64,000 nt of DNA from a virus (lineage: Duplodnaviria; Caudoviricetes). This document shows, piece by piece, positions 19,431 to 58,802 of the stretch (the first letter of the stretch is position 1; every line of letters starts with the position of its first letter). Under the pieces are notes generated by a model that was not told the DNA's origin, searched no databases, and worked only from the letters and a program-made list of their open reading frames with translations. Made by a program: the position numbers and the translations under genes. The stretch spans positions 1-64,000 of the IMG/VR virus record IMGVR_UViG_3300027969_004220; one strand, written 5' to 3'.

Positions 19431-19494
19431 AAACTATATATTAAAATATATTTTTTAAATTGAAACTTTATTGTATATTTGCACAATAAATAAT

Positions 19495-19620
19495 GAGCTA
19501 CTACAACTGACCTGTTAGAGAATAAGTTTTGGTCACATAGTTATAGTTAGTGTTTATGGTAGTAATTAGCTGAGAAATACGTTTTCTTATACACTTTTAA
19601 TAAAAACAGTGAACTACCTC
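19495..19620 (+). ncRNA. Candidate structured 5' leader or ncRNA upstream of the yqeY-tyrS genes
   Basis: Follows TATATTTG at 19474; pairings TGACC/GGTCA, AGCTA/TAGCT, GGTAGT/ACTACC. Confidence 0.35.
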
Positions 19621-19685
19621 GATATTAAATATAAAATATGAAAACAAAAGTGTATTTTTTTTAGAAATTATTAAAAATAAATATT

Positions 19686-20090
19686 ATGAATTTAAAAGAA
19701 CAAATTAGCAAAGACTACATGACTGCTTTCAAAGAAAGAAATGTCGTAGCAAAGAACTTACTTTCTGTAGTGAAAGGAGAAATCCAAACTATTGAAAAAA
19801 ATACAGGAGTAGATTGTCTTTCTGATGCAGAGGTAATTAAAATTCTTAATAAAACTGCAAAATCTCTTAAAGAAGTTATCGCAACTTCTGGTGATGCTGA
19901 ATCTGTAACTCAATTAGAAATGGTTGAAGCTTTACTTCCAGCTGCTATGACAAGAGAAGATGTTGTTGTAAAAGTTAGTGCACTTGTTGCATCAGGTATT
20001 ACCAATGTTGGTGGAATTATGAAAGAGTTTGCTACTTTACAAGTAGATAGAAAAGTTGTATCAGAAGTTATTAAAGAAGTATTAGCATAA
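19686..20090 (+). CDS. GatB/YqeY domain protein
   Basis: MNLKEQISKDYMTAFK...LSDAEVIKIL...LP..MTREDV...GGIMK pattern. Confidence 0.8.
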   Translation: MNLKEQISKDYMTAFKERNVVAKNLLSVVKGEIQTIEKNTGVDCLSDAEVIKILNKTAKSLKEVIATSGDAESVTQLEMVEALLPAAMTREDVVVKVSALVASGITNVGGIMKEFATLQVDRKVVSEVIKEVLA

Positions 20091-21346
20091 TGAAAAATAT
20101 AGTAGAAGAATTAAAATGGCGTGGATTGGTACACGATATAATACCTGGAACGGAGGCTCAACTTTTAAAAGAAGCCACCACCTCTTATATTGGTTTTGAT
20201 CCAACGTCAGATTCTCTACATATCGGTAGTTTAGTTCCAATCATTCTTTTAAAACATATGAAGAACTTTGGTCACAATCCTATCGCACTTGTTGGTGGGG
20301 CCACTGGTATGATCGGTGACCCCTCTGGTAAGTCAAATGAGAGAAATCTGTTAGACGAAGAAACACTTAGTAAAAATGTTGAAGGTATTAAAAATACACT
20401 AACAAGATTTTTAGGTGACACTCCTGTAGTAAATAACTACGATTGGATGTCAAAGTTTAGTTTTATAGATTTTGTACGAGACATTGGTAAAAGAATTACT
20501 GTAAATTACATGTTATCTAAACAATCTGTAAAAAACCGTATTGAAGGTGAAGGAATGTCTTTCACCGAATTTACATACCAGTTGATTCAAGGATACGATT
20601 TCTACCATCTAAACAAAGAACATAACTGTTTATTACAAATGGGTGGTTCAGATCAATGGGGTAACATTACAACAGGAACTGAACTAATTCATAAAATGAA
20701 TCCTGGTAGGGAATCATTTGCAATGACATGTCCTTTACTAACTAAATCGGATGGTTCTAAGTTCGGAAAATCTGAAGGAGGTACAAATATATGGTTAGAT
20801 AAAGATAAGACCTCTGTGTACAAGTTTTACCAATTTTGGATAAATACTGATGATAATGATGCAGAGAAATACATTAAAATCTTTACATTTTTAGATAAAG
20901 AAACTATTGATAATTTAATAGAAGAACATAATAAATCAAAGAACTTATTTTTGTTACAAAAAAAATTAGCAAGAGAAATAACTATTATGGTTCACGGTCA
21001 GCAAGAGTTTGAAAAAGCAATAGAAGCTTCTAACATTTTATTTAATGGTGGAGATTTAAACTTACTTGATGAAGAATTATTTCTAGATATATTTGGTGGA
21101 ATACCACAAGCGAAAGTTCCTATGGAAGATATTCTTGCTGGTATTACAATGACAGACATTCTATTTAAAACAGGTTTCTTAAAATCAAATAATGAAGCTA
21201 GGAGAGCTTTAAAAGAAAACTCTGTTGCAGTAAATAAAATAAAGAGAGAGGAAGACTACATAGTAACAGATGTTGATTTGATAAATGATAAGTTTATCAT
21301 ACTACAAAGAGGCAAGAAAAGTTACTTCTTAGTTGAAGCATCATAG
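20090..21346 (+). CDS. tyrS: Tyrosyl-tRNA synthetase
   Basis: YIGFDPT, HIGS, GGSDQWGNI and KFGKS motifs; C-terminal S4-like domain. Confidence 0.97.
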   Translation: MKNIVEELKWRGLVHDIIPGTEAQLLKEATTSYIGFDPTSDSLHIGSLVPIILLKHMKNFGHNPIALVGGATGMIGDPSGKSNERNLLDEETLSKNVEGIKNTLTRFLGDTPVVNNYDWMSKFSFIDFVRDIGKRITVNYMLSKQSVKNRIEGEGMSFTEFTYQLIQGYDFYHLNKEHNCLLQMGGSDQWGNITTGTELIHKMNPGRESFAMTCPLLTKSDGSKFGKSEGGTNIWLDKDKTSVYKFYQFWINTDDNDAEKYIKIFTFLDKETIDNLIEEHNKSKNLFLLQKKLAREITIMVHGQQEFEKAIEASNILFNGGDLNLLDEELFLDIFGGIPQAKVPMEDILAGITMTDILFKTGFLKSNNEARRALKENSVAVNKIKREEDYIVTDVDLINDKFIILQRGKKSYFLVEAS

Positions 21347-22286: not shown

Positions 22287-22380
22287 AAAAATTAGGTAGA
22301 TAAGTAAACTTTTATTACTTTTGTACTATAAAAATAACAAAAACACAAAAAGAGAGAATAAACTTTTAATATATAATAAC
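22287..22380 (+). repeat. Duplicated promoter block for tRNA operons, copy 1 (copy 2 at about 57533-57626)
   Basis: AAATTAGGTAGATAAGTAAACTTTTATTACTTTTGTACTATAAAAATAACAA...AAAAAGAGAGAATAAACTTTTAATATATA is near-identical at both sites. Confidence 0.85.
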
Positions 22381-22381
22381 A

Positions 22382-22492
22382 ATGAGAACAAATTCAATAC
22401 ATACAAGCTTTAGTAAGTCGTTCAAGTGGTTTAGCCACAAGTTCGGATGTATGAGTATGTCGTTCTCAAAAGAAGATGTTATTTTAGGATAA
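22382..22492 (+). CDS. Attenuator leader peptide 1 (Phe/Lys/Trp/His-rich)
   Basis: MRTNSIHTSFSKSFKWFSHKFGCMSMSFSKEDVILG; precedes a terminator and Lys/Trp/His/Phe tRNAs. Confidence 0.8.
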   Translation: MRTNSIHTSFSKSFKWFSHKFGCMSMSFSKEDVILG

Positions 22493-22521
22493 TGTCATAA
22501 AAGAGAATAAAACATAAACGT

Positions 22522-22554
22522 AAACCCGAACTAAAAAATTAGTTCGGGTTTTTT
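22522..22554 (+). terminator. Attenuator terminator 1
   Basis: AAACCCGAACTAA-aaaa-TTAGTTCGGGTTT plus T-run. Confidence 0.9.
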
Positions 22555-22563
22555 ATTTTATAA

Positions 22564-22649
22564 TCCCTCTTAGCTCAGTTGGTTTGCATTATGCTTAGAG
22601 CAATCGTCTTTTAAACGATGGGTCACAGGTTCGAATCCTGTAGGGGGAA
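22564..22649 (+). tRNA. trnK: tRNA-Lys(UUU) with enlarged D-loop
   Basis: Anticodon arm ATCGT-CTTTTAA-ACGAT; T-loop TTCGAAT; GCA-TTA-TGC insertion in the D-loop. Confidence 0.85.
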
Positions 22650-22658
22650 CTAAAAAAT

Positions 22659-22729: not shown

Positions 22730-22738
22730 CTAGAATAT

Positions 22739-22813
22739 GGTGATTGTCTTCTAAAGGTTAGGATACCTCCCTGTGAAGGAGGTGGTGCGGTCTCGGGATC
22801 CGTCTTTCACCCA
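22739..22813 (+). tRNA. trnH: tRNA-His(GUG), deviant T-loop and acceptor stem
   Basis: CCTCC-CTGTGAA-GGAGG; G-1 and encoded CCA. Confidence 0.75.
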
Positions 22814-22818
22814 AATAT

Positions 22819-23100: not shown

Positions 23101-23949
23101 ATGGGTTCAAATAACTGGTCGAGAAATGAGGAAGAATTATTAAAGGAAAATTATGGAAAATTAGGTGCAGAAAAGTGTAGTATTTTATTAGGTAGAACTA
23201 AAAGAGCATGTCAGATACGTGCAAAAAAATTGTTACTAAAATATGTAGATGATAGATATAATAAAATCAATTTATTAGAAATTGTAAAAGATTCTAAAAC
23301 AAAATCTGAATGTTTACGTAGATTAAATTTATCAACCAATGCAGGAAATTTTGATACACTTAACAGATATATTAAAAAATATGAAATAGATATATCACAT
23401 TTTGAATGTGTCACAGATGGATTAAAAATTTATGTTTCGAGTATAACAATCCCAATAAAAGATATATTGATAGAAAACTCTACATATAGTAGTACAAATC
23501 ATTTAAAAAAAAGATTATATAAAGAAGATTTAAAACAAAGAAGATGTGAATTATGTAACCAGGGAGAAGATTGGATGGGTAAAAAAATGAGTCTAATTTT
23601 AGATCATATAAATGGAGTAAATAATGATAATAGATTAGAAAATTTAAGAATTGTTTGTCCTAATTGTAATGCAACATTAGATACACATTGTAGAGGAACT
23701 AGAATAACAAAAGAAATAGAGAATAAAGATCATTGTAAATGTGGTGGTAGTAAATGGAAAACAAGTAAATCTTGTGTAGATTGTAGTAAAAAATTACAAA
23801 GAAAAGTTGAAAGACCTTCATTAGAACAAATTTTAGAAGATATAAAAGAAACAAACTATGTCTTAACCGGTAAAAAATATGGTGTTAGTGATAACACTAT
23901 AAGAAAGTGGATAAGACAATATAATGCGGATTTAGCTGAGACGGTTTAG
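23101..23949 (+). CDS. HNH homing endonuclease inside tRNA operon 1
   Basis: CELC...LDHINGVNNDNRLENLRIVCPNCN; its 3' end overlaps tRNA-Phe. Confidence 0.85.
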   Translation: MGSNNWSRNEEELLKENYGKLGAEKCSILLGRTKRACQIRAKKLLLKYVDDRYNKINLLEIVKDSKTKSECLRRLNLSTNAGNFDTLNRYIKKYEIDISHFECVTDGLKIYVSSITIPIKDILIENSTYSSTNHLKKRLYKEDLKQRRCELCNQGEDWMGKKMSLILDHINGVNNDNRLENLRIVCPNCNATLDTHCRGTRITKEIENKDHCKCGGSKWKTSKSCVDCSKKLQRKVERPSLEQILEDIKETNYVLTGKKYGVSDNTIRKWIRQYNADLAETV

Positions 23950-24001: not shown

Positions 24002-24132
24002 TAGAAAGTAGCTCAATTGGTAGAGCACGTAATCATACTTAGTCAGTCTTTCTCTAAGAAATTAGTAGCAATGAAATAAGTTACTTCGCTCTGTTAAAGC
24101 CGTGGTTGTGGGTTCGAGTCCCACCTTTCTAT
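24002..24132 (+). tRNA. tRNA-Asn(GUU)-like gene interrupted by a 58-nt structured insert (24030-24087)
   Basis: Removing the insert restores CGGCT-CTGTTAA-AGCCG; D and T arms canonical. Confidence 0.7.
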
Positions 24133-24176
24133 CAAATAAATAAAAACAAAGAATAAAATTTTAATATATAAATAAT

Positions 24177-24254
24177 ATGAAAACAATTATCACAACATCG
24201 TCAAGTTCGTCTAGTCGCTCAAGTAATTTGAGGGAGGTTCTGTTGTGCTCATAA
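24177..24254 (+). CDS. Attenuator leader peptide 2 (Ser-run plus Arg CGC)
   Basis: MKTIITTSSSSSSRSSNLREVLLCS; precedes a terminator, Arg(ACG) and four Ser tRNAs. Confidence 0.85.
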   Translation: MKTIITTSSSSSSRSSNLREVLLCS

Positions 24255-24275
24255 TTGATATAAAAAATTAGTATG

Positions 24276-24308
24276 AAACCCACAGACTTCAAAGTTTGTG
24301 GGTTTTTT
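24276..24308 (+). terminator. Attenuator terminator 2
   Basis: AAACCCACAGACT-tcaa-AGTTTGTGGGTTT plus T-run. Confidence 0.9.
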
Positions 24309-34877: not shown

Positions 34878-37622
34878 TTATAATGTTGTTATTGTTACTG
34901 TTGTTCCATTACCATAACTATTATCAGCAACTGCAATATATACAGTATATGATACTAATGCACCACTTATTGTCGTAATTGATAGTGCAGAAGTTCTTTT
35001 TATAAATGCGGTTAGTGTACTTGATACGGTTGGTGGTGGAATCGATTCTGGATAAGGAGTTACTGTTAAAGATGAAAGATCTCCTAATGAAGAAGGATAA
35101 GCAAATACCAATCTTGAACCAGCACCCCCATCATTGGAAGCAAATTTTTGTGCCTTAGTACCAAATTTATAATTTCCAAGTCCTTCCACAATACTTTGAA
35201 GAGTAACTGAATCATATGTATCAACATCTGTTTGAGTAAGACTTATCGAAGCTGATCCAATATTTGCATATCCATAGTAAAATACATTACTAAATGCTAA
35301 TGATGCACTAACTGGTGTACTATCACTTCCAGTTGCCGCAATTACTTGCGAACCAGATACAATTAAACCAGTTTTTGGTTTTGATATTGTTGTAGTATAA
35401 GTAGTACCACTAGATAATCCAGTAGTAGATAAAGTTGCACTAACTTTTGGATATGAACCTGAACTAAATGTATATGATCCAGTTACTGTAGATGGGGTTG
35501 AAAATCCAGTAGTTGCTGCAGGAATACTACTTGTTCCAGTATATTTAACTATACATCCATTAGGCACTGTTACTGAATTCGATGTACTAAATGTACCTAC
35601 TGAAAACGTAGCCATACTTGTTCCAGTACCTTTTATTACAGTCGGTCCAAATAGTGTAGTACCATCAGACTCATATATCTCCCATCTAGAAACAATTGTT
35701 GGAGTAACTAATGCAGTTGCAGCTAAGTCTATTTCAACTTGTTGATTATTTAACTTACCAACTAATCTAGCGGGGTTTTGTTGAGGTAAATCACCTTGAA
35801 AAACCAAATTATATTCAGATAAAAGTAATATTAAGGTTCTATCATATAAATAATTATCAAATACTAAGTTGTATTGTATTGAACTTGTATTAGTATTCAA
35901 ATTATATTGACCCGATAAATTATTCATTGTTATATTAGTTTGTGAAATTCCTCTAAAGTTGATATTTTCATTATAAGAATTCACTATATTTTGACTACCA
36001 ATTCCCTTACCATTAGCAGTATTGTATACATTACCCCATTGAAATGCTTTTATTGGATTATATAATCCAATATCATCTATCCAATAACTAATATTTTGTG
36101 TATTAGTACTTACTATATTTGTACCTCTCTCACTTCTATAAATTATTTTATTAGTAAATCTATCATACTTAATTTCATCATAACTAATATTATAGTTTGG
36201 AGTCGTATAAGAAAGAAGTGTCCATTCTGATAAGGCTAATGAAAAATTATCAAGTGATGCTAATGTATTAACTCCAGAGATATTACTCCAAGCTCTACCA
36301 CCCCAATAAACAACAGAACCGGTTGCGTAGGATGATGAAGGACCCGCCCATATTTTATATCCGGCAACTGTTTGATCATATTTAGGATTATAGAATTTAC
36401 CTTCTCCAACATCATTTAATATTCCTTGTGAATTTGTTGTTAGGTATATTTCTGTACCACCATATAAATCAATATCAGCATCTGTTATTCTATAAGTACT
36501 AGATGATGACAATGTTGACAATCCAGCAAATGCTGTAGCAGTTATAGTAATAACCGGTGTTCCAACTCCAGAAGACCAGCTAAGATTACCAACACCATCT
36601 GTTTTTATAACTTGCCCAGAAGTTCCATCTGATAAAGGTAGTTTATATTGATTATTAATGTCTACTTTACCACCTAAATAAACCGTATCTGCACTATCAA
36701 CTATTAAATCTTGACCACCAATAACAACTGTATTAGATAAACCAGGATCAACTGCTGCTCTAGAAGATGATATAAAAGTAATGTTAGTATTTTCAGTTCG
36801 TGTAGTAAATCCATTATCAATATCAGTAATAAAAATTCCACTATAATCACTCACCAGAGTATTCTTTGAATTTAATAAACCAATAATATTTCCAATTGAT
36901 GTTAAGTAAGTTTCATTATTACCGTTAAATTTTAACTGACCATCTCCACTTATTCCTTTTACATAACCACCATCTTTTATTATTAAATTAGGTGCATAAA
37001 CAGAGTTTGATTGTGTTCCAACAATCTGAGAACCACCAATAATAACACTATTATTAACGGTATTTGAAAATCTTGAACCATCTGATGATATAAATGCAGG
37101 AACTCTATTACCACTTGTTCTCACAGTGGTTGCTGTTGTAAACTCTAAAACATTTGTTACTCCTAATTTTAAATAAGAGTTGTTATTTTGTAATAAAAAT
37201 TGATTTGCACCATAACTTAAACTAATATAAGATGTATTCATTATTACAGATGAACTTAAACCAGTTAGTTGAATAGTATTATCATCCATAGTTAAAGTAG
37301 AACCTGTTATTGAAGATGATAATTGTACATAATTACCATAACTACCATTATTATCTAATCTTAAACTGGCTGATCCACCATTAGATCTTAGACGAGTATT
37401 TAGATCTAAGTATATAGAATTCGTACCGGTTGTTTTACCAATAGATAATGTTTGTGCAAGTGAACCTATTCCACCACCTGATCCAATTGGTGTAATAACA
37501 CCTAAATGATCTTTTTGTGTTAAAACTCCTAATGTATCATATCCAACTACGAATCCACCAATTGAAGAAGGTGTTGCCACAGTTATCATATTTACTCTAC
37601 TCTCAAAAAGAACTAATGCCAT
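34878..37622 (-). CDS. Putative virion structural/tail fibre protein
   Basis: 914-aa S/T/G-rich ORF with DGTSGQVIKTDGVGNLSW fibre-like motif; TAATATATA upstream. Confidence 0.55.
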   Translation of the reverse strand: MALVLFESRVNMITVATPSSIGGFVVGYDTLGVLTQKDHLGVITPIGSGGGIGSLAQTLSIGKTTGTNSIYLDLNTRLRSNGGSASLRLDNNGSYGNYVQLSSSITGSTLTMDDNTIQLTGLSSSVIMNTSYISLSYGANQFLLQNNNSYLKLGVTNVLEFTTATTVRTSGNRVPAFISSDGSRFSNTVNNSVIIGGSQIVGTQSNSVYAPNLIIKDGGYVKGISGDGQLKFNGNNETYLTSIGNIIGLLNSKNTLVSDYSGIFITDIDNGFTTRTENTNITFISSSRAAVDPGLSNTVVIGGQDLIVDSADTVYLGGKVDINNQYKLPLSDGTSGQVIKTDGVGNLSWSSGVGTPVITITATAFAGLSTLSSSSTYRITDADIDLYGGTEIYLTTNSQGILNDVGEGKFYNPKYDQTVAGYKIWAGPSSSYATGSVVYWGGRAWSNISGVNTLASLDNFSLALSEWTLLSYTTPNYNISYDEIKYDRFTNKIIYRSERGTNIVSTNTQNISYWIDDIGLYNPIKAFQWGNVYNTANGKGIGSQNIVNSYNENINFRGISQTNITMNNLSGQYNLNTNTSSIQYNLVFDNYLYDRTLILLLSEYNLVFQGDLPQQNPARLVGKLNNQQVEIDLAATALVTPTIVSRWEIYESDGTTLFGPTVIKGTGTSMATFSVGTFSTSNSVTVPNGCIVKYTGTSSIPAATTGFSTPSTVTGSYTFSSGSYPKVSATLSTTGLSSGTTYTTTISKPKTGLIVSGSQVIAATGSDSTPVSASLAFSNVFYYGYANIGSASISLTQTDVDTYDSVTLQSIVEGLGNYKFGTKAQKFASNDGGAGSRLVFAYPSSLGDLSSLTVTPYPESIPPPTVSSTLTAFIKRTSALSITTISGALVSYTVYIAVADNSYGNGTTVTITTL

Positions 37623-37689
37623 AATTTTATATAAAATATTTTGTACCTTATATATTATTTTTTATATTTGTAAATTAAAGGAAAGCAAC

Positions 37690-38193
37690 ATGATTATTAC
37701 TAAAGGTGAAATAAGTGAGAAGAAAAATAAATCTAAGATATTTAGATTTGAAAATGAAGAGTATGAAAAGGAACATTATAGTAAATTTGACTTACATCAA
37801 ACTAAAATAAAAACAGGTAAATTCTTTTTGTATGAGTCTGTTACTGGAAGAGGTCAATCAGTTTTGACTTATCCTAAGTTGGGAGTTTTCATAGATACTT
37901 ATCTGGTAGATCAAGCTTTAGAAGTTGAATGGATTGATACTCGAAGAACTTGGGAGTATAAAGTTGAATATGAATATGATTATAATGGTAAAATATACAC
38001 TAATCTTGTCGCTGAAGATAAATCTGAATTAAAAAGTTTAATTCTATGGGATGATGTAATGTATGTTTATGGAATTTGGGATATAAAACCGGATTGGAAA
38101 CAATTAAGACAAGCATATGAAAGAACTTTATGGTTCAAAAAAACAAAATCTGAACTGAGAAATTCTCAAATAAATAGAATACTAAATGGATAA
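37690..38193 (+). CDS. Hypothetical protein with C-terminal RN-motif
   Basis: Ends LRNSQINRILNG; TATATTTG upstream. Confidence 0.6.
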   Translation: MIITKGEISEKKNKSKIFRFENEEYEKEHYSKFDLHQTKIKTGKFFLYESVTGRGQSVLTYPKLGVFIDTYLVDQALEVEWIDTRRTWEYKVEYEYDYNGKIYTNLVAEDKSELKSLILWDDVMYVYGIWDIKPDWKQLRQAYERTLWFKKTKSELRNSQINRILNG

Positions 38194-38452
38194 ACAACAA
38201 ATAATCGACCTAGTAATTACAATGAAAAGTGATGCAGTTAAACTTCAAATATTTGACGCAGCGAGTGCTCTAAGAAGTATTGAGAATACTTTTAAAGGTC
38301 AGTTTGTATTTCCAGAAGAACAAAAAGAAGTCACTGTTGAAAATTTTATATCATTACTAAATCATTATATCCAAAGAACCCAGGATGAAGAAACCAAATC
38401 TTATCTAAAATCTATTTTAAGAGATTTCAAGATAAATTTAGTATCTAGGTAA
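38186..38452 (+). CDS. Hypothetical protein (UVR-like N-terminus, C-terminal RD-motif)
   Basis: FDAASALRSIE; ends LRDFKINLVSR. Confidence 0.55.
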   Translation: MDKQQIIDLVITMKSDAVKLQIFDAASALRSIENTFKGQFVFPEEQKEVTVENFISLLNHYIQRTQDEETKSYLKSILRDFKINLVSR

Positions 38453-38806
38453 TTGCATATCAGTTGTAATCTCAATCTTAAATCCAAATCCAGAATCATC
38501 ATCTGATGTATATCTAACTTCTGAGTCATATCCTCTATCACCGCTAAATGTCATTGGTTTTGGACCAGTCATTTGTTGTTGTCTTCTCATTTGATTATTT
38601 CTTTCTTCTGATTCTTGTTGAGCAATCATTTCTTCAAATGTTAAACCCGGTGGAGTCGGAGGAGTTGGATCATCTTGACGAGTTGTAAATTGTTCTGGTT
38701 GATGTCCATATTTACGAAGTAGTTGTTCTGCTTCCCAACTTGGAATATTTGCTGGTCTAGTTTCCTCTGATTGAGGTTCGATCATTGTTACTTGAGTTCT
38801 TTCCAT
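38438..38806 (-). CDS. Hypothetical Q/P-rich protein
   Basis: 122-aa ORF; TTTATATATA upstream. Confidence 0.55.
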   Translation of the reverse strand: MERTQVTMIEPQSEETRPANIPSWEAEQLLRKYGHQPEQFTTRQDDPTPPTPPGLTFEEMIAQQESEERNNQMRRQQQMTGPKPMTFSGDRGYDSEVRYTSDDDSGFGFKIEITTDMQLPRY

Positions 38807-38934
38807 AACTTTTTATTTATTTTATAAGGTATATATAAAAAATTGTCACTATATTTGTACTCAGAAAGAAAAAAAGTTCAAAAATATGAAAAGGAAGAAA
38901 AACTTTTTAATATATAGAACTATAAAACATATAT

Positions 38935-39005
38935 CGCGTTAAAGTGTAAAGGTTGCATGAGACTCTCATAAGGTCTACGGGGTGGTTCGAATCCACGATA
39001 CGCTA
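38935..39005 (+). tRNA. trnM: tRNA-Met(CAU), degenerate initiator-like
   Basis: AGACT-CTCATAA-GGTCT; imperfect acceptor stem with C1 mismatch. Confidence 0.6.
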
Positions 39006-39051
39006 CAAAAGAGATAGATAACGATTTAGATACAAGTCTCAAAGAATATAT

Positions 39052-39124
39052 CGCGGGATAGAGCAGTAGGCAGCTCGTGTGGCTCATAACCATAAGGTCG
39101 GAGGTTCGAGTCCTTCTCCCGCTA
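39052..39124 (+). tRNA. trnfM: tRNA-fMet(CAU)
   Basis: CGCGGGA/TCCCGCT with C1:U72 mismatch; TGTGG-CTCATAA-CCATA. Confidence 0.85.
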
Positions 39125-39221
39125 CTAAAAGAATAAAAAAAGTTAAAAAAGATTTGGTGAATTAAAAACTTATCGTATCTTTGTAGAAGAATTAAAAACA
39201 ACAATTTAAAAAATAGAAAAA

Positions 39222-39323
39222 ATGACAACAATTACTAACATAACAATAGCTATCGAAGCCATAGGCGGGTATGAAGCGGGGTATACAATACCATCGGTCA
39301 GAAGCGTTATGTGTATAAAGTAA
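39222..39323 (+). CDS. Attenuator leader peptide 3 (Ile-AUA/Ala/Glu/Gly/Tyr-rich)
   Basis: MTTITNITIAIEAIGGYEAGYTIPSVRSVMCIK; precedes a terminator and Tyr/Glu/Ile(UAU)/Gly/Ala tRNAs. Confidence 0.85.
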   Translation: MTTITNITIAIEAIGGYEAGYTIPSVRSVMCIK

Positions 39324-39350
39324 TGAGTTGAAAAAACATTATTATACAAC

Positions 39351-39388
39351 AAACCCAATCTGACGTAAAAATCAGATTGGGTTTTTTT
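39351..39388 (+). terminator. Attenuator terminator 3
   Basis: AAACCCAATCTGA-cgtaaaaa-TCAGATTGGGTTT plus T-run. Confidence 0.9.
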
Positions 39389-39402
39389 ATTGAATTATAT
39401 CT

Positions 39403-39488
39403 GGGTAGATATGCAAGTGGTTAAAGCTGGCAGACTGTAAATCTGTTCTCATTCGAGTTCGGGGGTTCGAATCCCTCTCTACCCACCA
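39403..39488 (+). tRNA. trnY: tRNA-Tyr(GUA)
   Basis: GCAGA-CTGTAAA-TCTGT; long variable arm; encoded CCA. Confidence 0.9.
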
Positions 39489-39494
39489 AAATAT

Positions 39495-39567
39495 GGTGTA
39501 TTCGTCTAGCGGTAAGGATTACGCTTTTTCAAAGCGGAGGACGTCGGTTCGAATCCGACATACACTA
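39495..39567 (+). tRNA. trnE: tRNA-Glu(UUC)
   Basis: CGCT-TTTTCAA-AGCG. Confidence 0.85.
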
Positions 39568-39581
39568 CAAAAAACATAATC

Positions 39582-39649
39582 GGGATGGATTATGGTGATA
39601 GCCGGGTCTGTAAAACCCTAGCAGGAGAGTTCGAGTCTCTCGCATCCCA
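39582..39649 (+). tRNA. tRNA-Tyr(GUA), miniature D-arm, no long variable arm
   Basis: GGGT-CTGTAAA-ACCC; GAGAG-TTCGAGT-CTCTC; acceptor GGGATG/CATCCC. Confidence 0.65.
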
Positions 39650-39655
39650 CTGCAA

Positions 39656-39727
39656 GCTGCTATCGTCTAACGGTAGGACAACATCTTCTCAAGGTGTGAG
39701 ATACGGGTTCGACCCCCGTTAGCAGTA
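39656..39727 (+). tRNA. trnE: tRNA-Glu(CUC)
   Basis: ACATC-TTCTCAA-GGTGT. Confidence 0.85.
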
Positions 39728-39734
39728 CAAAAAT

Positions 39735-39957
39735 TGGGTTAACTTCCGGTGTAGGAACCGGCGTCCTCAGGTAAGGGAGGAAGCTAACAAAGCTAAGGAA
39801 AATGGTGGTAAACAAACCACAAGGTGCGAGACCCCTTTAGCCCACAAAGTAGATATTTGAGTGTAAGCAAGTACAATATCAGTCGTTAGGTTCTTACAGA
39901 CAGTGAACGATGGTCCGAATGTCATTATTCGGTGATGGATACCAGGCAACTCCATCA
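39735..39957 (+). ncRNA. Unknown highly structured RNA of about 220 nt embedded in tRNA operon 3
   Basis: GC-rich; many helices (CCGGT/ACCGG, GCTAAGG/CTTTAGC, GTGGT/ACCAC, GATATT/AATATC, CCGAAT/ATTCGG, TGATGGA/TCCATCA); loop-loop TGTAAG/CTTACA. Confidence 0.7.
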
Positions 39958-39962
39958 TATAT

Positions 39963-40034
39963 GATCCGGTCTTCTAATGGTCAGGAAGCAAGGTTTTCAT
40001 CCTTGTAATCAGGGTTCGATTCCCTGTCGGATTA
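39963..40034 (+). tRNA. trnE: tRNA-Glu(UUC)
   Basis: CAAGG-TTTTCAT-CCTTG. Confidence 0.85.
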
Positions 40035-40043
40035 CAAAAAAAC

Positions 40044-40118
40044 TGGTAAGTAGCTTAGACGGTAGAAGCATCTGTCTTATACACAGAAGATAGTCGGGTT
40101 CGATACCCACCTTACCAA
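40044..40118 (+). tRNA. trnI: tRNA-Ile(UAU)
   Basis: TCTGT-CTTATAC-ACAGA; acceptor TGGTAAG/CTTACCA. Confidence 0.8.
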
Positions 40119-40125
40119 CAAAATC

Positions 40126-40199
40126 GCGGGAGTCGTATAATGGCTCGATTATGCTGGCTTTCCACGTCAGAGACGAGGGTTCGATTCCCTTCTCCCGCA
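40126..40199 (+). tRNA. trnG: tRNA-Gly(UCC)
   Basis: CTGGC-TTTCCAC-GTCAG; acceptor GCGGGAG/CTCCCGC. Confidence 0.85.
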
Positions 40200-40253
40200 C
40201 CGCAGACTTTTTTGACTTTTTTATTTTAATATATATAATAAAAAAGTCTGAAA

Positions 40254-40880
40254 ATGTCAAAAAATAAAATAAAGTATCACTTTTTGTATAAAACTACAAA
40301 TTTGATAAATAGTAAGTATTATTATGGAATGCATAGTACCTATAAACTAGATGATGGTTATTTAGGATCTGGTAAAATGTTAAGATACTCAATACGTAAA
40401 TATGGTAAAGAAAATTTTAACATCGAAATTATAGAATTTTTTCCTTCAAGAGAAGATTTAGTAAACGCTGAAATGAATTTGATTACAGAAGAAATGGTAG
40501 TTGATAACAAACTATGTATGAACCTTAAAAAAGGTGGTTTAGGTGGATTTACAAAAGAACAATCTCATAAAGGTGCATTAAGGATGTTAGATATAATATG
40601 GAGTGATAGTGATTTTATAACAAGACACAACGAAAGAAAAAGTAAGCTAATCAAAGAACTATATCTAAGTGGTAAAATAAAAAGATGTGACTGGACTGGT
40701 AGAAAACATAGTAAAGATACTATAGAGAAAATGACTTTATCTAAAAAAGGACAAGGATTAGGAGAATCTAATTCACAATTCGGAACTTGCTGGATAACAA
40801 AAGATGGAGAGAATAAAAAAATAACAAAAGAAAAATTAGAAGACTATTTGATGGATGGTTGGATAAATGGAAGAAAATAA
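40254..40880 (+). CDS. GIY-YIG/NUMOD3 homing endonuclease inside tRNA operon 3
   Basis: FLYKTTNLINSKYYYGMH...YLGSG; GRKHSKDTIEKM NUMOD3-like segment. Confidence 0.8.
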   Translation: MSKNKIKYHFLYKTTNLINSKYYYGMHSTYKLDDGYLGSGKMLRYSIRKYGKENFNIEIIEFFPSREDLVNAEMNLITEEMVVDNKLCMNLKKGGLGGFTKEQSHKGALRMLDIIWSDSDFITRHNERKSKLIKELYLSGKIKRCDWTGRKHSKDTIEKMTLSKKGQGLGESNSQFGTCWITKDGENKKITKEKLEDYLMDGWINGRK

Positions 40881-40881
40881 T

Positions 40882-40953
40882 GCGAATGTAGCTCAGTGGT
40901 AGAGCTTCTGCTTGCCAAGTAGAAGGCCGCCGGTTCGACCCCGGTCATTCGCT
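40882..40953 (+). tRNA. trnG: tRNA-Gly(GCC)
   Basis: TCTGC-TTGCCAA-GTAGA; U73. Confidence 0.9.
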
Positions 40954-41033
40954 CAGTATAAGTGGTTTAAGTTATAGAAATCTCTATATCTAAGACGTTA
41001 GATGAAAAATTTTTATACACCACTTTAATTATA

Positions 41034-41177
41034 AAGATAGTAGTAATATAAAGCGTTACTTCGTATTCAAACGACTATTATAGGTTCGAATCCTATTGTC
41101 TGCTCAAATAATTAAAAATGCAGATATAGTGTAATGGTAACACAGTAAAAACACGTTTAATAAACTTTCTCTATCTT
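41034..41177 (+). tRNA. Circularly permuted tRNA-like gene flanked by the split halves of the insert seen in tRNA-Asn
   Basis: 3' half (anticodon-like arm, ATAGG-TTCGAAT-CCTAT, TGTCTGC-T; 41062-41104) precedes 5' half (GCAGATA-TA-GTGT-AATGGTA-ACAC; 41120-41146). Confidence 0.65.
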
Positions 41178-41182
41178 ACTTT

Positions 41183-41254
41183 GGGGCTATCGTATAATGG
41201 CTATTACACAGGATTTGCAATTCTGATATGAGATTTCGACTATCTCTAGCTCCA
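41183..41254 (+). tRNA. trnA: tRNA-Ala(UGC)
   Basis: CAGGA-TTTGCAA-TTCTG; G3:U70 pair. Confidence 0.9.
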
Positions 41255-41429
41255 CAAAATAAAAATTAAATATGAAAACTAAAGAACAGTCGCTGGACGC
41301 ACTTTAGTCACAGAAGAATATAAATCTTACTGTGACGGTAATAAAACAGAAAGAATTAAAAGATCATTAGTAAAAAATGGTTCTCGTAATGATAGAAAAT
41401 TACAAAAATATTCTGATAAATTTAACAAA

Positions 41430-41816
41430 ATGTTTGAGTTTTACTTCAAAATTTACAGAAGTGGTTTAGTTAAATTTTGTGGTGATATTGTTAAGGTAGA
41501 CTTTGATGTAAATGGCTCAGAAGGAAAATTTGCATTTAGGGAATATGATAATGGTCGTTTTAAACTAATAACACCTATATCAAGACACCCTAATATACTT
41601 CAATCCGTAATCATTGGTAAAAAAGGTTGGGGATTATGGGTAAATCAATGGACTGATGGAATTGTTGATTGGTCATTCACAAAAGAAGAAATACTAAAAG
41701 AATTTGAATTAAGAGATATAGAAATACCAGAATCACTAATGATTGAATGGGATAAATTGATACTAAAAAGAAAGATTATACGTAACGAAAATTATATGAA
41801 GTCTATTAAAATCTGA
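41430..41816 (+). CDS. Hypothetical protein (frame is open upstream to 41283)
   Basis: 128-aa ORF; upstream ATG at 41272 is out of frame by one base. Confidence 0.5.
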   Translation: MFEFYFKIYRSGLVKFCGDIVKVDFDVNGSEGKFAFREYDNGRFKLITPISRHPNILQSVIIGKKGWGLWVNQWTDGIVDWSFTKEEILKEFELRDIEIPESLMIEWDKLILKRKIIRNENYMKSIKI

Positions 41817-41834
41817 GATTATTCTCAGATTTTT

Positions 41835-42797
41835 TTATATACCTTTACTTAAATTTGTTAAGTGTTCAGTAATATCGGCAATTGTTAAAATGGCTGATTT
41901 TTCTGCATCTTCACTACTAATTTCCTTATTATTCTTATCAATTCCAGTAACCAATGAATCTATATCAAAATGTAAGTCTGATATTTTTAGGTAAATTTCA
42001 TCAATTGAGGTTTTTATTTCTCTTGCACAAATATTTATTAAACCCTCTAGATCAGAAATAGGTAAGGTAACTTTTTTAGTATTATTATTACTAATTTTAT
42101 TGGTATTTAATTCAACATAACTTTTCACACCACTAACTACAATATTTCTATTTACATTTGTTTTATCACCACCACGTTTACTAACTGCAAAATCATCACT
42201 TATTATCTGACTATAATCTAAAATATGTACATCTATATTGCTATCAGATTGATTTTTAAGACATATTACATAGTAGTCACATGGTTTTAATGTATTAACT
42301 TTAATAACATTACCTGCTTTATATAATTTTATTTGATATGTTACAATATCTTCACCGGTATCTTCCTCAGATGGAACTGTTTTAAATTCAGCAACAGATA
42401 ATTCACTATATGATTTTGATGCAGTAATATCTGCAATTGCACGACCAGCAGTTAATTTACCATGAATTAGTGAAGCAAGAAATCCTTCTAATAAAAATCC
42501 AGCACTTGACTCATTGAAATTGGTTCTTAGTTCATTTAGATATTGTAATATTGTAATTAATGAAATTTTGTCTTTAATAGTTATATTATTATCATTTACT
42601 AGTTCATTTATCTGTGATAATAATTTTACTTTTTTCTGTAAATCATATTTATCTTTTTTTCTACTATTTGGATTTTTAGTTAATATCTTATCTAATATCG
42701 TAACGTATCTAGCCATTCTAATATACATATCATCATCCACTTTAATATTTACCCAACCTCTCGGATAAGTAAAGTTTTCAAATTTCATTATTTCCAT
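41835..42797 (-). CDS. Hypothetical protein with possible PD-(D/E)XK nuclease fold and N-terminal MKFENF tag
   Basis: SAGFLLEGFLASL...ADI...YQIKL pattern; TAATATATA upstream. Confidence 0.45.
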   Translation of the reverse strand: MEIMKFENFTYPRGWVNIKVDDDMYIRMARYVTILDKILTKNPNSRKKDKYDLQKKVKLLSQINELVNDNNITIKDKISLITILQYLNELRTNFNESSAGFLLEGFLASLIHGKLTAGRAIADITASKSYSELSVAEFKTVPSEEDTGEDIVTYQIKLYKAGNVIKVNTLKPCDYYVICLKNQSDSNIDVHILDYSQIISDDFAVSKRGGDKTNVNRNIVVSGVKSYVELNTNKISNNNTKKVTLPISDLEGLINICAREIKTSIDEIYLKISDLHFDIDSLVTGIDKNNKEISSEDAEKSAILTIADITEHLTNLSKGI

Positions 42798-42844
42798 ATT
42801 GTATATATTAAATCTTTTACTTACTTTTGTAAAAATTAAAGATT

Positions 42845-43114
42845 ATGGAGTTAAAAGATTTTCTAATAAAAACAGGTTTAAAATCTTCTGAGGTTTCATT
42901 TTTCTATAAGAATAGAACTGATGAAAGACCGGTTGAAGTAAAAATAATTCAATCTAATAAAAAAGGAATGTGGGAAATAATTAGAAAAAGTCAAATTCAA
43001 GATAGAACTGAATATTCTGGTTTTTTCACAACTTTTTCTACTCTCTGGATTAAAACTCCATCAAGATTTTTAAAGGTAGGTAAATTATTACAAGAGTTGG
43101 ATGCAGTTGAATAA
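42845..43114 (+). CDS. Hypothetical protein
   Basis: 89-aa ORF after TACTTTTG. Confidence 0.5.
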   Translation: MELKDFLIKTGLKSSEVSFFYKNRTDERPVEVKIIQSNKKGMWEIIRKSQIQDRTEYSGFFTTFSTLWIKTPSRFLKVGKLLQELDAVE

Positions 43115-57532: not shown

Positions 57533-57626
57533 AAAAATTAGGTAGATAAGTAAACTTTTATTACTTTTGTACTATAAAAATAACAAATAAACAAAAAGAG
57601 AGAATAAACTTTTAATATATACAATA
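57533..57626 (+). promoter_or_regulatory. Duplicated tRNA-operon promoter block, copy 2 (TACTTTTG host-type element plus TAATATATA motif)
   Basis: Near-identical to 22287-22380; a diverged third copy lies at about 58714-58802. Confidence 0.75.
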
Positions 57627-57731
57627 ATGAAAACAACTAATCTAAATATTAACTTAACGCTGAATGTCTTATGTCTAAGACAAAGACCGGGTTTTGCCTT
57701 ATTTAGAGCAACTGATTTTGATGGTGTGTAA
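57627..57731 (+). CDS. Attenuator leader peptide 4 (Leu/Arg-AGA)
   Basis: MKTTNLNINLTLNVLCLRQRPGFALFRATDFDGV; precedes a terminator and Arg(UCU)/Leu tRNAs. Confidence 0.8.
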   Translation: MKTTNLNINLTLNVLCLRQRPGFALFRATDFDGV

Positions 57732-57759
57732 TCATTAAATTCAAACTAAATATACAAAC

Positions 57760-57792
57760 AAAACCCGAAATTTAAAAGTTTCGGGTTTTTTT
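57760..57792 (+). terminator. Attenuator terminator 4
   Basis: AAAACCCGAAATT-taaa-AGTTTCGGGTTTT plus T-run. Confidence 0.9.
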
Positions 57793-57900: not shown

Positions 57901-57970
57901 GTCGGGGTGGTGGAATGGTAGACACGCAGCACTTAAAATGCTGTGCTCCAGAAGAGTCCCTTTCCCGATA
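57901..57970 (+). pseudogene. tRNA-Leu(UAA) lacking the T-arm
   Basis: CAGCA-CTTAAAA-TGCTG intact; after the variable arm the sequence runs GAGT-CCCTT with no GGTTCG. Confidence 0.65.
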
Positions 57971-58074: not shown

Positions 58075-58155
58075 GCCTCAGTAGTCCCAGTTGTCTTCTA
58101 AACAACTACGGGTAATTGGAAACTGAAAATGTAGGTTCGAATCCTATCTGGGGTA
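58075..58155 (+). tRNA. Non-canonical tRNA-Arg(UCU)-like RNA (anticodon arm precedes a D-like arm)
   Basis: GCCTCAG/CTGGGGT acceptor; AGTTGT-CTTCTAA-ACAACT directly after it; then GGT-AATTGGAA-ACT, GAAAAT and a canonical T-arm. Confidence 0.6.
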
Positions 58156-58696: not shown

Positions 58697-58802
58697 CAAA
58701 GAAAAATTAAAAAAGATTAGGTAGATTAAAAAACTAATAGTATATTTGTACTATAAATAAAGATAAACAAAAAGGGACAATAAAAATTTAATATATAATA
58801 TA

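Follow-up and report, generated by a model that had tools for sequence, protein, structure and literature searches.

Background

Why should a phage place a short open reading frame (ORF) and a transcription terminator directly ahead of its own tRNA genes? The question is raised by positions 39222-39388 of a viral DNA stretch (Duplodnaviria; Caudoviricetes; IMG/VR record IMGVR_UViG_3300027969_004220), of which positions 1 to 64,000 were analysed and are called the window below. Here an ORF of 33 codons is followed by a hairpin with a T-run and, immediately after it, by tRNA genes. According to the original prediction, the locus is a leader-peptide attenuator with codons matching the downstream tRNAs. 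We find this idea supported by codon enrichment, by the covariation of leaders with tRNA content, by synonymous drift of the regulatory codons and by a fold that depends on the position of the ribosome. It appears highly likely that a ribosome-dependent leader-peptide transcription attenuator gates this phage tRNA unit, and the phage would then probably make tRNAs only when their cognate codons are decoded slowly. The pattern formed with five sister modules and with relatives is far beyond chance. At the sequence level, the predictions of the attenuator idea that were tested all came out as predicted.

Results

The leader codons and the downstream tRNAs

Codons 7-23 of the leader encode I T I A I E A I G G Y E A G Y T I, so that 15 of the 17 residues are I, A, E, G or Y, as had been read from the sequence. 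The four ATA codons mentioned originally are present as codons 7, 9, 14 and 23, and codon 32 is a fifth one. The tRNAs that were said to follow (Tyr x2, Glu x3, Ile(UAU), Gly x2 and Ala) were found by ARAGORN and Rfam, the second Tyr being weak. Codons 7-21 are cognate to these Ile(UAU), Ala, Glu, Gly and Tyr tRNAs.

Cognate amino acids take up 17 of the 32 non-start codons versus a background of 0.299 (binomial P=0.005), and at the codon level the cognates number 14 of 32 versus 0.251 (P=0.016). The other two frames of the same stretch contain only 7/32 and 8/32 cognates.

A promoter-like pair precedes the leader (Table 1), which we take to resemble the Bacteroidota -33/-7 consensus. A start site after it would give an A-rich 5' untranslated region (5' UTR) of about 30-35 nt, and no Shine-Dalgarno sequence is found in this expected 5' UTR. 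The word TANNTTTG, located at 39176, shows no more than a mild enrichment: the window has 129 copies vs 108 +/- 9.8 in shuffles, with at least as many in 2 of 100 shuffles.

The same module before every tRNA cluster of the contig

The whole virus contig (105,621 bp, 29.4% G+C) was scanned. Each of its six tRNA clusters is preceded by the same module, and 36 of the 37 tRNA genes called by default ARAGORN lie behind one; the lone tRNA without a module is the tRNA-Met just upstream of the leader considered here. The order of elements is constant: a promoter-like sequence, a leader ORF of 25-36 codons starting with M-(K/R/T/N)-(T/N), a hairpin with a T-run and a tRNA, the distance from the end of the hairpin to the first tRNA being 13-25 nt in all six modules. 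All 20 amino acids are represented when the tRNAs of the six units are combined.

The true assignment of leaders to units is the best of the 720 permutations, both at the amino-acid and at the codon level (the units were composed of ARAGORN calls, with a few odd tRNA-like genes excluded). In frame 0 the six leaders contain 14, 11, 17, 9, 22 and 8 cognates vs 0-8 in the other frames. The match extends to the choice of isoacceptor: before Ile(UAU) at our locus ATA makes up 5 of the 7 Ile codons, in module E, with Ile(GAU), ATT makes up 3 of 4, and AGA codons stand ahead of Arg(UCU).

Leaders of relatives follow the tRNA content

The sole related record in the phage collection is LR745206.1 (634,780 bp); a passage of PMC9723777 places LR745206 among megaphages larger than 630 kb. 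For its seven units the true pairing with leaders is the best of 5040 permutations, again at the amino-acid and at the codon level. The region orthologous to our locus consists there of two units, with MNTITNIASYESYYEEGN before Glu and Tyr and MKNLNNISIAVIGNGAGAI before Ile(UAU), Gly, Met, Gly and Ala. The same split into a Y/E leader and an I/G/A leader is observed in a further relative (L065), while a single merged I/A/E/G/Y leader is found at 39222-39323. Elsewhere in LR745206.1 the Leu/Arg and the Asn/Val/Ile/Thr clusters are fused behind one N/L/T/V/I leader, MTTMNLNMTMNLTLNVVNITLCNIR, and the Gln tRNAs are separate, behind MTTTQQIQQQQINQTD.

Relatives in the first pattern scans, where the matches listed were mostly due to chance, were selected by tRNA content. 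A 19-base pattern of the leader start was then found in 9 viral and 64 metagenome stretches, and at least one complete unit is present in 6 of the former and 44 of the latter; the remaining stretches are incomplete loci or chance matches. Leaders with this start have other cores before other tRNAs: AYYYEGE before Glu and Tyr, ERREREE before Glu and Arg(UCU), LVVTLCLL before Cys, Val and Leu, SSSSSRS before Arg and Ser, KKEKE before Lys and Glu, and QQQQ before Gln.

Taken through an automatic census, the fetched loci gave 99 units; the 93 with tRNAs comprise 69 distinct peptides in 22 clusters (below 50% identity). Over 22 non-redundant units the score of a leader with its own unit was 9.09 vs 5.24 +/- 0.44 after permutation (none of 200,000 permutations as good, z 8.7). 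The census dropped only the units lacking tRNAs and thus kept one obviously spurious ORF and two truncated units; module A of the contig and one unit of L065 were missed by the automatic rules and are absent from it. In the representative genomes of 185,579 species, the 19-base leader start has three matches, none of which is a module (ORFs of 8-12 codons, no tRNAs), and they give no hint at the host.

Two further kinds of leader were observed in other phage contigs. A 32-codon leader with all 20 amino acids stands before a long mixed tRNA array (L175:5520-5618, also L191 and L177); the probability of such a composition is about 2.4e-4 under the phage amino-acid composition and 3.5e-3 under a uniform one. 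This type lacks the MxTITNI start, has a terminator richer in G+C and may come from a different phage lineage. A 50-codon leader with all 20 amino acids (L296:7060-7212, also L263) precedes a long mixed tRNA array (P 0.016). In both types the range of ribosome positions that leaves the antiterminator free, as defined below, covers nearly the whole ORF.

Selection acts on the identity of the regulatory codons

The units found with the 19-base pattern include 15 distinct DNA versions of the leader 39222-39323. None of them has a broken ORF, and three have an in-frame deletion of 6 nt. Across these versions the variable columns at codon positions 1, 2 and 3 number 1, 5 and 10. Codons 7-21 contain 6 synonymous vs 1 non-synonymous variant codons, and the rest of the ORF 1 vs 13 (Fisher P=0.00085). 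The synonymous variants are GCT/GCA, ATC/ATA, GCC/GCA/GCG, GGG/GGA and GAA/GAG; the single non-synonymous one changes Thr8 to Ala, i.e., toward a cognate residue. Codons 7-21 being held while the remainder drifts is the pattern to be expected of a sensor ORF, and not of a functional peptide or a non-coding RNA. The regulatory codons appear to be held by which tRNA family reads them, and the other residues of the peptide seem free to change.

Terminator and antiterminator

The T-run of the terminator ends 14 nt before tRNA-Tyr, which leaves no space for a separate promoter. A consensus scan for terminators over 36000-43000 gave 4 sites vs 2.1 +/- 1.6 in shuffles. The fold of the full leader contains the terminator (-40.7 kcal/mol, z -3.77, none of 200 shuffles as good).

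The complementary words proposed for the alternative fold are found exactly where they had been placed: GTCAGA at 39297-39302 and TGTATAA at 39312-39318 against TTATACA at 39342-39348 and TCTGAC at 39359-39364. The overlap with the terminator is equally real, as TCTGAC sits in the 5' arm and the first base of the loop. When the transcript is taken before the 3' arm of the terminator (39291-39368), its predicted fold is a single long hairpin with imperfect pairing (-15.6 kcal/mol; z -2.52; equalled by 3 of 200 shuffles) and with the pairs GUCAGA:UCUGAC, GUU:AAC and UGUAUAA:UUAUACA, followed by an apical stem. A further hairpin, 39260-39311, is present in the full-length fold and loses in the shortened transcript.

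The terminator arm is paired at 0.69 vs 0.39 +/- 0.15 after shuffling of the upstream part (3 of 100 shuffles as high); over 17 leaders this test gave 0-15 of 100 shuffles as high. In the matrix of duplexes between 13 leaders and their terminator arms, the own pairs were beaten in none of 100,000 permutations. The segment position in this matrix was picked by hand after the ribosome-position modelling; the test was repeated on the whole leader without such a choice, and the result for the family was the same. The paralogous modules differ in their terminators and each has the matching word a few codons past the regulatory run, e.g., AGUUCGG, GUCAGA, CGGGUUUU, UUCGGGU and AGACUAAC. GTCAGA itself is unchanged in all 15 orthologous DNA versions and in the diverged Y/E leaders.

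Dependence of the fold on ribosome position

The ribosome was modelled as masking the RNA up to 12 nt past the first base of the A site. The pairedness of the terminator 5' arm is then 0.69 with the A site at codons 1-22, falls to 0.31 at codon 23, does not exceed 0.10 from codon 26 on and is 0.10 at the stop codon. Thus a ribosome with its A site on any of codons 7-21 leaves the antiterminator free in the model. This permissive window shuts a few codons past the last cognate codon in 13 leaders of two genomes and in 10 more distant units. The formation of the antiterminator, so far as modelled in silico, is tied to the position of the ribosome. The stop codon lies inside the inner stem of the antiterminator, which a terminating ribosome would therefore melt.

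Table 1. Coordinates of the features at the locus, in its tRNA unit and in the sister modules
Feature	Position	Strand	Description	Source
Promoter-like pair	39153..39183	+	TTTG (39153-39156), 19 nt, TAtcTTTG (39176-39183)	Read from sequence
Leader ORF	39222..39323	+	MTTITNITIAIEAIGGYEAGYTIPSVRSVMCIK; ATG to TAA, 33 codons and stop	ORF list
Regulatory codons 7-21	39240..39284	+	ATA ACA ATA GCT ATC GAA GCC ATA GGC GGG TAT GAA GCG GGG TAT	
Antiterminator, 5' strand (segment 2)	39297..39318	+	GUCAGA, GUU, UGUAUAA	
Antiterminator, apical part	39319..39341	+	Inner stem with the last sense codon and the UAA stop (39321-39323)	
Antiterminator, 3' strand (segment 3)	39342..39364	+	UUAUACA, AAC, UCUGAC; overlaps the terminator 5' arm (39351-39363)	
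Intrinsic terminator	39351..39388	+	Hairpin 39351-39384, 13 pairs, 5 G-C, loop 8, -17.8 kcal/mol; T-run 39382-39388 (7 T)	
tRNA-Tyr(GTA)	39403	+	Start of first block (39403..40201)	ARAGORN, Rfam
tRNA-Glu(TTC)	39495	+		ARAGORN, Rfam
Weak Tyr(GTA)-like	39579-39653	+	22 bits, cut-off 29	Rfam
tRNA-Glu(CTC)	39656	+		ARAGORN, Rfam
tRNA-Glu(TTC)	39963	+		ARAGORN, Rfam
tRNA-Ile(TAT)	40044	+		ARAGORN, Rfam
tRNA-Gly(TCC)	40126	+	End of first block	ARAGORN, Rfam
Seg-like GIY-YIG gene	40254..40880	+	Probable homing endonuclease, inserted in the tRNA unit	blastn, Pfam
tRNA-Gly(GCC)	40882-40954	+	Start of second block (40882..41255)	
Odd tRNA-like	41033-41105	+	Second block	
tRNA-Ala(TGC)	41183-41255	+	Second block	
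Module A, leader and terminator	22382..22551	+	MRTNSIHTSFSKSFKWFSHKFGCMSMSFSKEDVILG (starts MRTNSIHTSFSKSFKWFSHKFG); then Lys-like, Trp, His-like, Lys, Phe, His, Phe, Met tRNAs	
Module B, leader and terminator	24177..24305	+	MKTIITTSSSSSSRSSNLREVLLCS (starts MKTIITTSSSSSSRSS); then Arg(ACG), four Ser tRNAs	
Module D, leader and terminator	57627..57788	+	MKTTNLNINLTLNVLCLRQRPGFALFRATDFDGV (starts MKTTNLNINLTLNVLCLRQR); then Arg(TCT), four Leu tRNAs	
Module E, leader and terminator	58803..58948	+	MKTNTVNINVITITNCVNSTTSGNEICMV (starts MKTNTVNINVITITNCVN); then Asn, Ile(GAT), Val, Cys, Thr tRNAs, two each	
Sixth module	contig 67529, outside the window		Leader starts MKNVNVNIVVMPQPMQDQD; then Gln, Asp, Pro tRNAs	

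Other features of the tRNA units

The gene inserted in the tRNA unit of our locus matches annotated segB/segD in blastn (about 70% identity over about 160 nt) and the Pfam family SegE_GIY-YIG at 19.9 bits, below the cut-off of 25; the motif TTTTAATATATA precedes it at 40224. ORFs are likewise inserted in other tRNA units, at 23101-23949, with HNH matches below threshold (20.1 bits vs a cut-off of 21.4), and at 59350-59886, with no Pfam match. All three are probably homing endonucleases, the presence of which varies among relatives.

Many tRNA species are represented by a canonical gene and an odd copy, the latter with long inserts, weak Rfam scores or lengths of 84-94 nt (22564-22650, 22738-22815, 24002-24133, 38933-39006, 39579-39653, 41033-41105, 57901-57970, 58075-58155 and 59048-59226). 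One of the odd copies is a Met(CAT) gene with a 51-nt intron. By eye, 22564-22650 is a Lys(UUU) tRNA with an insert in the D-loop; relaxed ARAGORN takes it for Ile(tat). As a probe for orthologues, 25 bases of the odd Tyr-like tRNA had no matches in the viral contigs. No tRNA was called and no Rfam family matched in the 234-nt stretch 39729-39962, which separates Glu(CTC) from Glu(TTC). By eye, the first half of the stretch resembles a tRNA with a long extra arm and a GTA anticodon loop. In the contig of a relative, 150 nt are replaced in this region (joint 39693 to 39844).

The 12-base motif TTTTAATATATA has 14 copies in the contig, seven per strand: 12740, 22364, 23067, 24159, 38905, 40224 and 57610 on the plus strand of the window, 19446 and 25598 on the minus strand, and five further minus-strand copies past the window. 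They lie 10-30 nt upstream of start codons, tRNA genes or leader ORFs (of the six leaders, three have an exact copy and two a near variant). The motif is possibly a phage-specific promoter giving very short or no 5' UTRs. It is absent before the leader 39222-39323 and present before the tRNA-Met pair just upstream. Another, conserved box, ATTAGGTAGAT, is located about 20 nt upstream of a TAnnTTTG-like element before four of the six leaders (22290-22330, 57540-57575 and 58725-58755 in the window, 67441-67480 in the contig) and before one in LR745206.1; it occupies the expected place of the -33 TTTG.

Genes for a tyrosyl-tRNA synthetase, an NAD-dependent ligase and a nicotinamide phosphoribosyltransferase are also present in the window, in keeping with a phage of very large size. 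Before a yqeY-like ORF and the synthetase gene (20090-21346), the region 19474-19686 contains a promoter-like TAtaTTTG site, the 5-codon ORF MSYYN (two of its codons are for Tyr), about 190 nt of leader and a T-run. We do not claim a Tyr-sensing control of the synthetase by this leader: its predicted fold does not surpass those of shuffled sequences (z -0.78), and Rfam gave no match, to the T-box or to any other family.

Discussion

Proposed mechanism

We presume the following order of events. Transcription would start at the promoter-like site 39153-39183 or read in from the tRNA-Met unit, and a ribosome, coupled to RNA polymerase, would translate the 33-codon leader. Slow decoding at any of codons 7-21 would stall it before 39297, and 39297-39318 could then pair with 39342-39364, sequestering the 5' arm of the terminator. 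With the antiterminator formed, RNA polymerase would continue into the Tyr, Glu, Ile(UAU), Gly and Ala tRNA genes, and RNase P and other nucleases would presumably release the tRNAs. If decoding is fast, the ribosome would reach the UAA within the antiterminator hairpin, melt the hairpin and free the 5' arm; the terminator 39351-39384 would then form, and transcription would end 14 nt before the first tRNA.

The default state would be ON, and only brisk translation would switch the unit OFF. This amounts to a negative feedback, in which a tRNA group is made only while the capacity to read its codons is limiting, i.e., homeostasis of decoding capacity, group by group. The direction and size of the response, and the limiting signal (the amount of tRNA or its charging), are inferred. 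The same design seems to gate all six units of the contig and the units of relatives. The phage tRNA-Ile with the UAU anticodon would not need TilS, and depletion of TilS would act via the host decoder of AUA.

On balance we lean toward a broader statement: large phages run a demand-sensing circuit for tRNA supply, in which the leader is a codon checklist rewritten whenever tRNAs are gained, lost, split or merged.

Alternative explanations

The same attenuator could sense amino-acid starvation or tRNA charging, as the trp and his leaders do, so that the tRNAs would be induced upon starvation or host shut-off. The anatomy would be identical, and, as is established for attenuation, a stalled ribosome is blind to the difference between a missing and an uncharged tRNA. 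Starvation, however, is not relieved by more tRNA, and the one-to-one match of codons and tRNAs, down to the isoacceptor, would be pointless; this is an argument from design and not a test. The exact tRNA-by-tRNA bookkeeping argues for tRNA molecules rather than charging as the sensed shortage, and we regard the starvation reading as unlikely.

A ribosome-independent RNA switch would make the ORF incidental: the leader would bind tRNAs as a T-box does, or a phage antitermination protein would act on it. A terminator/antiterminator pair does exist, and in the model the antiterminator forms without a ribosome. However, no T-box or cis-regulatory Rfam family matches at E up to 1 in 38850-41350, the cognate triplets are confined to the frame of the ATG-to-stop ORF, the regulatory stretch varies synonymously, and the 6-nt deletion keeps the frame. 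Besides, specifier loops cannot account for all of the different codons, which number up to 20 in a leader, and the permissive window follows the position of the ribosome. We consider this switch very improbable.

There might be no regulation at all: the hairpin would be a plain or leaky terminator of the upstream tRNA-Met unit or of a tiny gene, and the codon match a matter of coincidence or common descent. The modules are indeed homologous (they share the N-terminus MxT..N.I and the promoter-like sequence), so that the six are not fully independent, and the P value of the single leader is only 0.005-0.016. Descent, however, predicts similar leaders, and not a divergence that follows the tRNA sets through splits and mergers. 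The 6/1 vs 1/13 ratio of synonymous to non-synonymous variants shows selection on codon identity, and the tRNAs begin 13-25 nt past the hairpins and so rely on read-through. Such a lack of regulation is hardly credible.

The least probable explanation is the inverse logic known from pyrBI-type attenuators, in which an efficiently translating ribosome masks the terminator and read-through occurs when translation is healthy; nothing specific speaks for it, the 27 nt from the end of the stop codon to the terminator stem (about 21-29 nt over the six modules) are too many for a terminating ribosome to cover the stem, and a ribosome at the stop is predicted to leave the 5' arm free (0.10 paired).

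Points against the proposed attenuator

The demand-sensing attenuator has its own difficulties, and the following observations weigh against it. The statistics for the leader 39222-39323 on its own are modest, and it is the family that makes the case. The leader contains five Thr codons and other non-cognate codons, and ATA codons 23 and 32 fall beyond the permissive window. Leader A (22382-22492) has eight Ser codons and no Ser tRNA in its own unit, the Ser tRNAs lying 1.8 kb downstream in the next unit; every reading offered here leaves these codons unexplained. An endonuclease gene preceded by a promoter-like motif stands ahead of the Gly(GCC) and Ala tRNAs, so that these two could also be transcribed on their own.

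As to the fold, the footprint used in the ribosome modelling is assumed. In the ribosome-free state the arm is still paired at 0.69 in the antiterminator, and no convincing 1:2 protector/pause hairpin, which would enforce termination without translation, is predicted. Since the antiterminator forms without a ribosome, an untranslated leader would read through, unlike that of trp. Among the 13 leaders, the ribosome-free pairedness is well lower in only two (0.17 and 0.13) and intermediate in two more (0.39 and 0.48).

In the position-free duplex test our leader ranks its own terminator arm 4th of 6 and 8th of 13, and 1st with the chosen position; the 6-bp helix GUCAGA:UCUGAC is thus not distinctive alone. 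Support for this helix comes from its position and its invariance in the 15 versions and the diverged Y/E leaders. Compensatory changes were sought in the orthologues of the leader and none is informative, the helices being near-invariant because the orthologues are too alike; one change in the inner helix (G to C, opposite C to U) is not compensatory.

Two assembled contigs from different RNA libraries fall on the locus, one of 151 nt identical over 39176-39326 and one of 157 nt covering 39145-39300. Both begin ahead of the presumed start of transcription, could stem from carried-over DNA and are uninformative on the terminator, and we did not use them as evidence.

The coupling of transcription and translation is assumed for a host whose identity is a guess. 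That this host belongs to the Bacteroidota is hinted at by the TTTG-N19-TAnnTTTG sites, by the lack of Shine-Dalgarno sequences and by a SusC-like gene, which a passage of PMC9723777 reports for LR745206.

Significance

If the proposed attenuator is true, the phage gauges, for one codon after another, how well the infected cell is able to decode phage genes, and it supplements only the tRNA groups in short supply. Attenuation would extend to RNA genes, and tRNA genes would form a new class of targets of ribosome-mediated attenuation. The ordered grouping of tRNA genes in megaphage genomes would be explained as well. The phage tRNAs would be switched on when host tRNAs are limiting, be it owing to a mismatch in codon usage, to host shut-off or to tRNA-cleaving defence nucleases, and the circuit would then be a built-in counter-measure as well as a homeostat.

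This bears on what tRNA genes do for a phage and how they are controlled: the competing ideas of 'codon-usage compensation' and 'replacement of depleted host tRNAs' would become open to simple reporter experiments. With the signature of a short ORF, a terminator and a tRNA with matching codons and anticodons, further units can be located in metagenomes and the identities of tRNAs verified. The leaders would also be compact natural sensors of the decoding capacity for chosen codons and could serve synthetic biology.

Comparison with known systems

In full-text literature searches, judged by listings and the openings of abstracts and with most subscription journals outside their coverage, no description of leader-peptide attenuation of tRNA genes was found. 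As far as searched, the family of tRNA-gating attenuators is conserved and previously undescribed. The transcription of cellular tRNAs is known to be controlled at initiation, by growth-rate and stringent control, and not through a sensing of decoding. The E. coli tRNA-Phe genes, considered as a possible precedent, were dropped: by our reading of the sequence, the 106-nt spacer of pheV has neither a Phe-rich leader ORF nor a terminator (the ORF list for pheV had a minimum of 20 amino acids and was untranslated). In E. coli K-12, unlike in the phage modules, a promoter-like sequence lies directly upstream of the pheV tRNA.

T-box riboswitches (RF00230) are similar in that the state of a specific tRNA is sensed by a terminator/antiterminator switch before translation-related genes. 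In a T-box the uncharged tRNA is bound directly, via a single specifier codon and with no need for a ribosome, whereas the phage leaders have many in-frame triplets in an ORF. No match to RF00230 (Stem I specifier loop, T-box sequence) was found at the gathering score in the window, nor at E up to 1 in 38850-41350, and the same holds for the Rfam leader families (His, Trp, Leu, Thr and similar). In the pheM leader of the pheST operon, attenuation tunes a component of the translation apparatus to one charged tRNA; unlike the phage module, pheM controls a synthetase protein, responds to one amino acid and belongs to a cellular genome.

The closest likeness is to the leaders of enterobacterial amino-acid biosynthesis operons, trpL, hisL, pheL, leuL, thrL and ilvL, which consist of a short ORF, a run of regulatory codons, a terminator and an alternative hairpin taking the 5' arm upon a stall. 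Leaders for several amino acids are known among them: thrL contains Thr and Ile codons, and ilvL Ile, Leu and Val codons. Four of the five structural features of leader-peptide attenuators are seen at our locus in silico, namely a short ORF in the 5' leader, clustered regulatory codons, a rho-independent terminator before the regulated genes and an exclusive antiterminator; the protector hairpin is the fifth. The attenuation mechanism of pheL is described in a passage of PMC3082878. The module considered here differs from the enterobacterial leaders in being carried by a phage, in regulating tRNAs and not enzymes, and in having no predicted 1:2 protector/pause hairpin. It also differs in being composite: up to five amino acids are represented at 39222-39323, and up to all twenty in other contigs, as set by the tRNAs of the unit.

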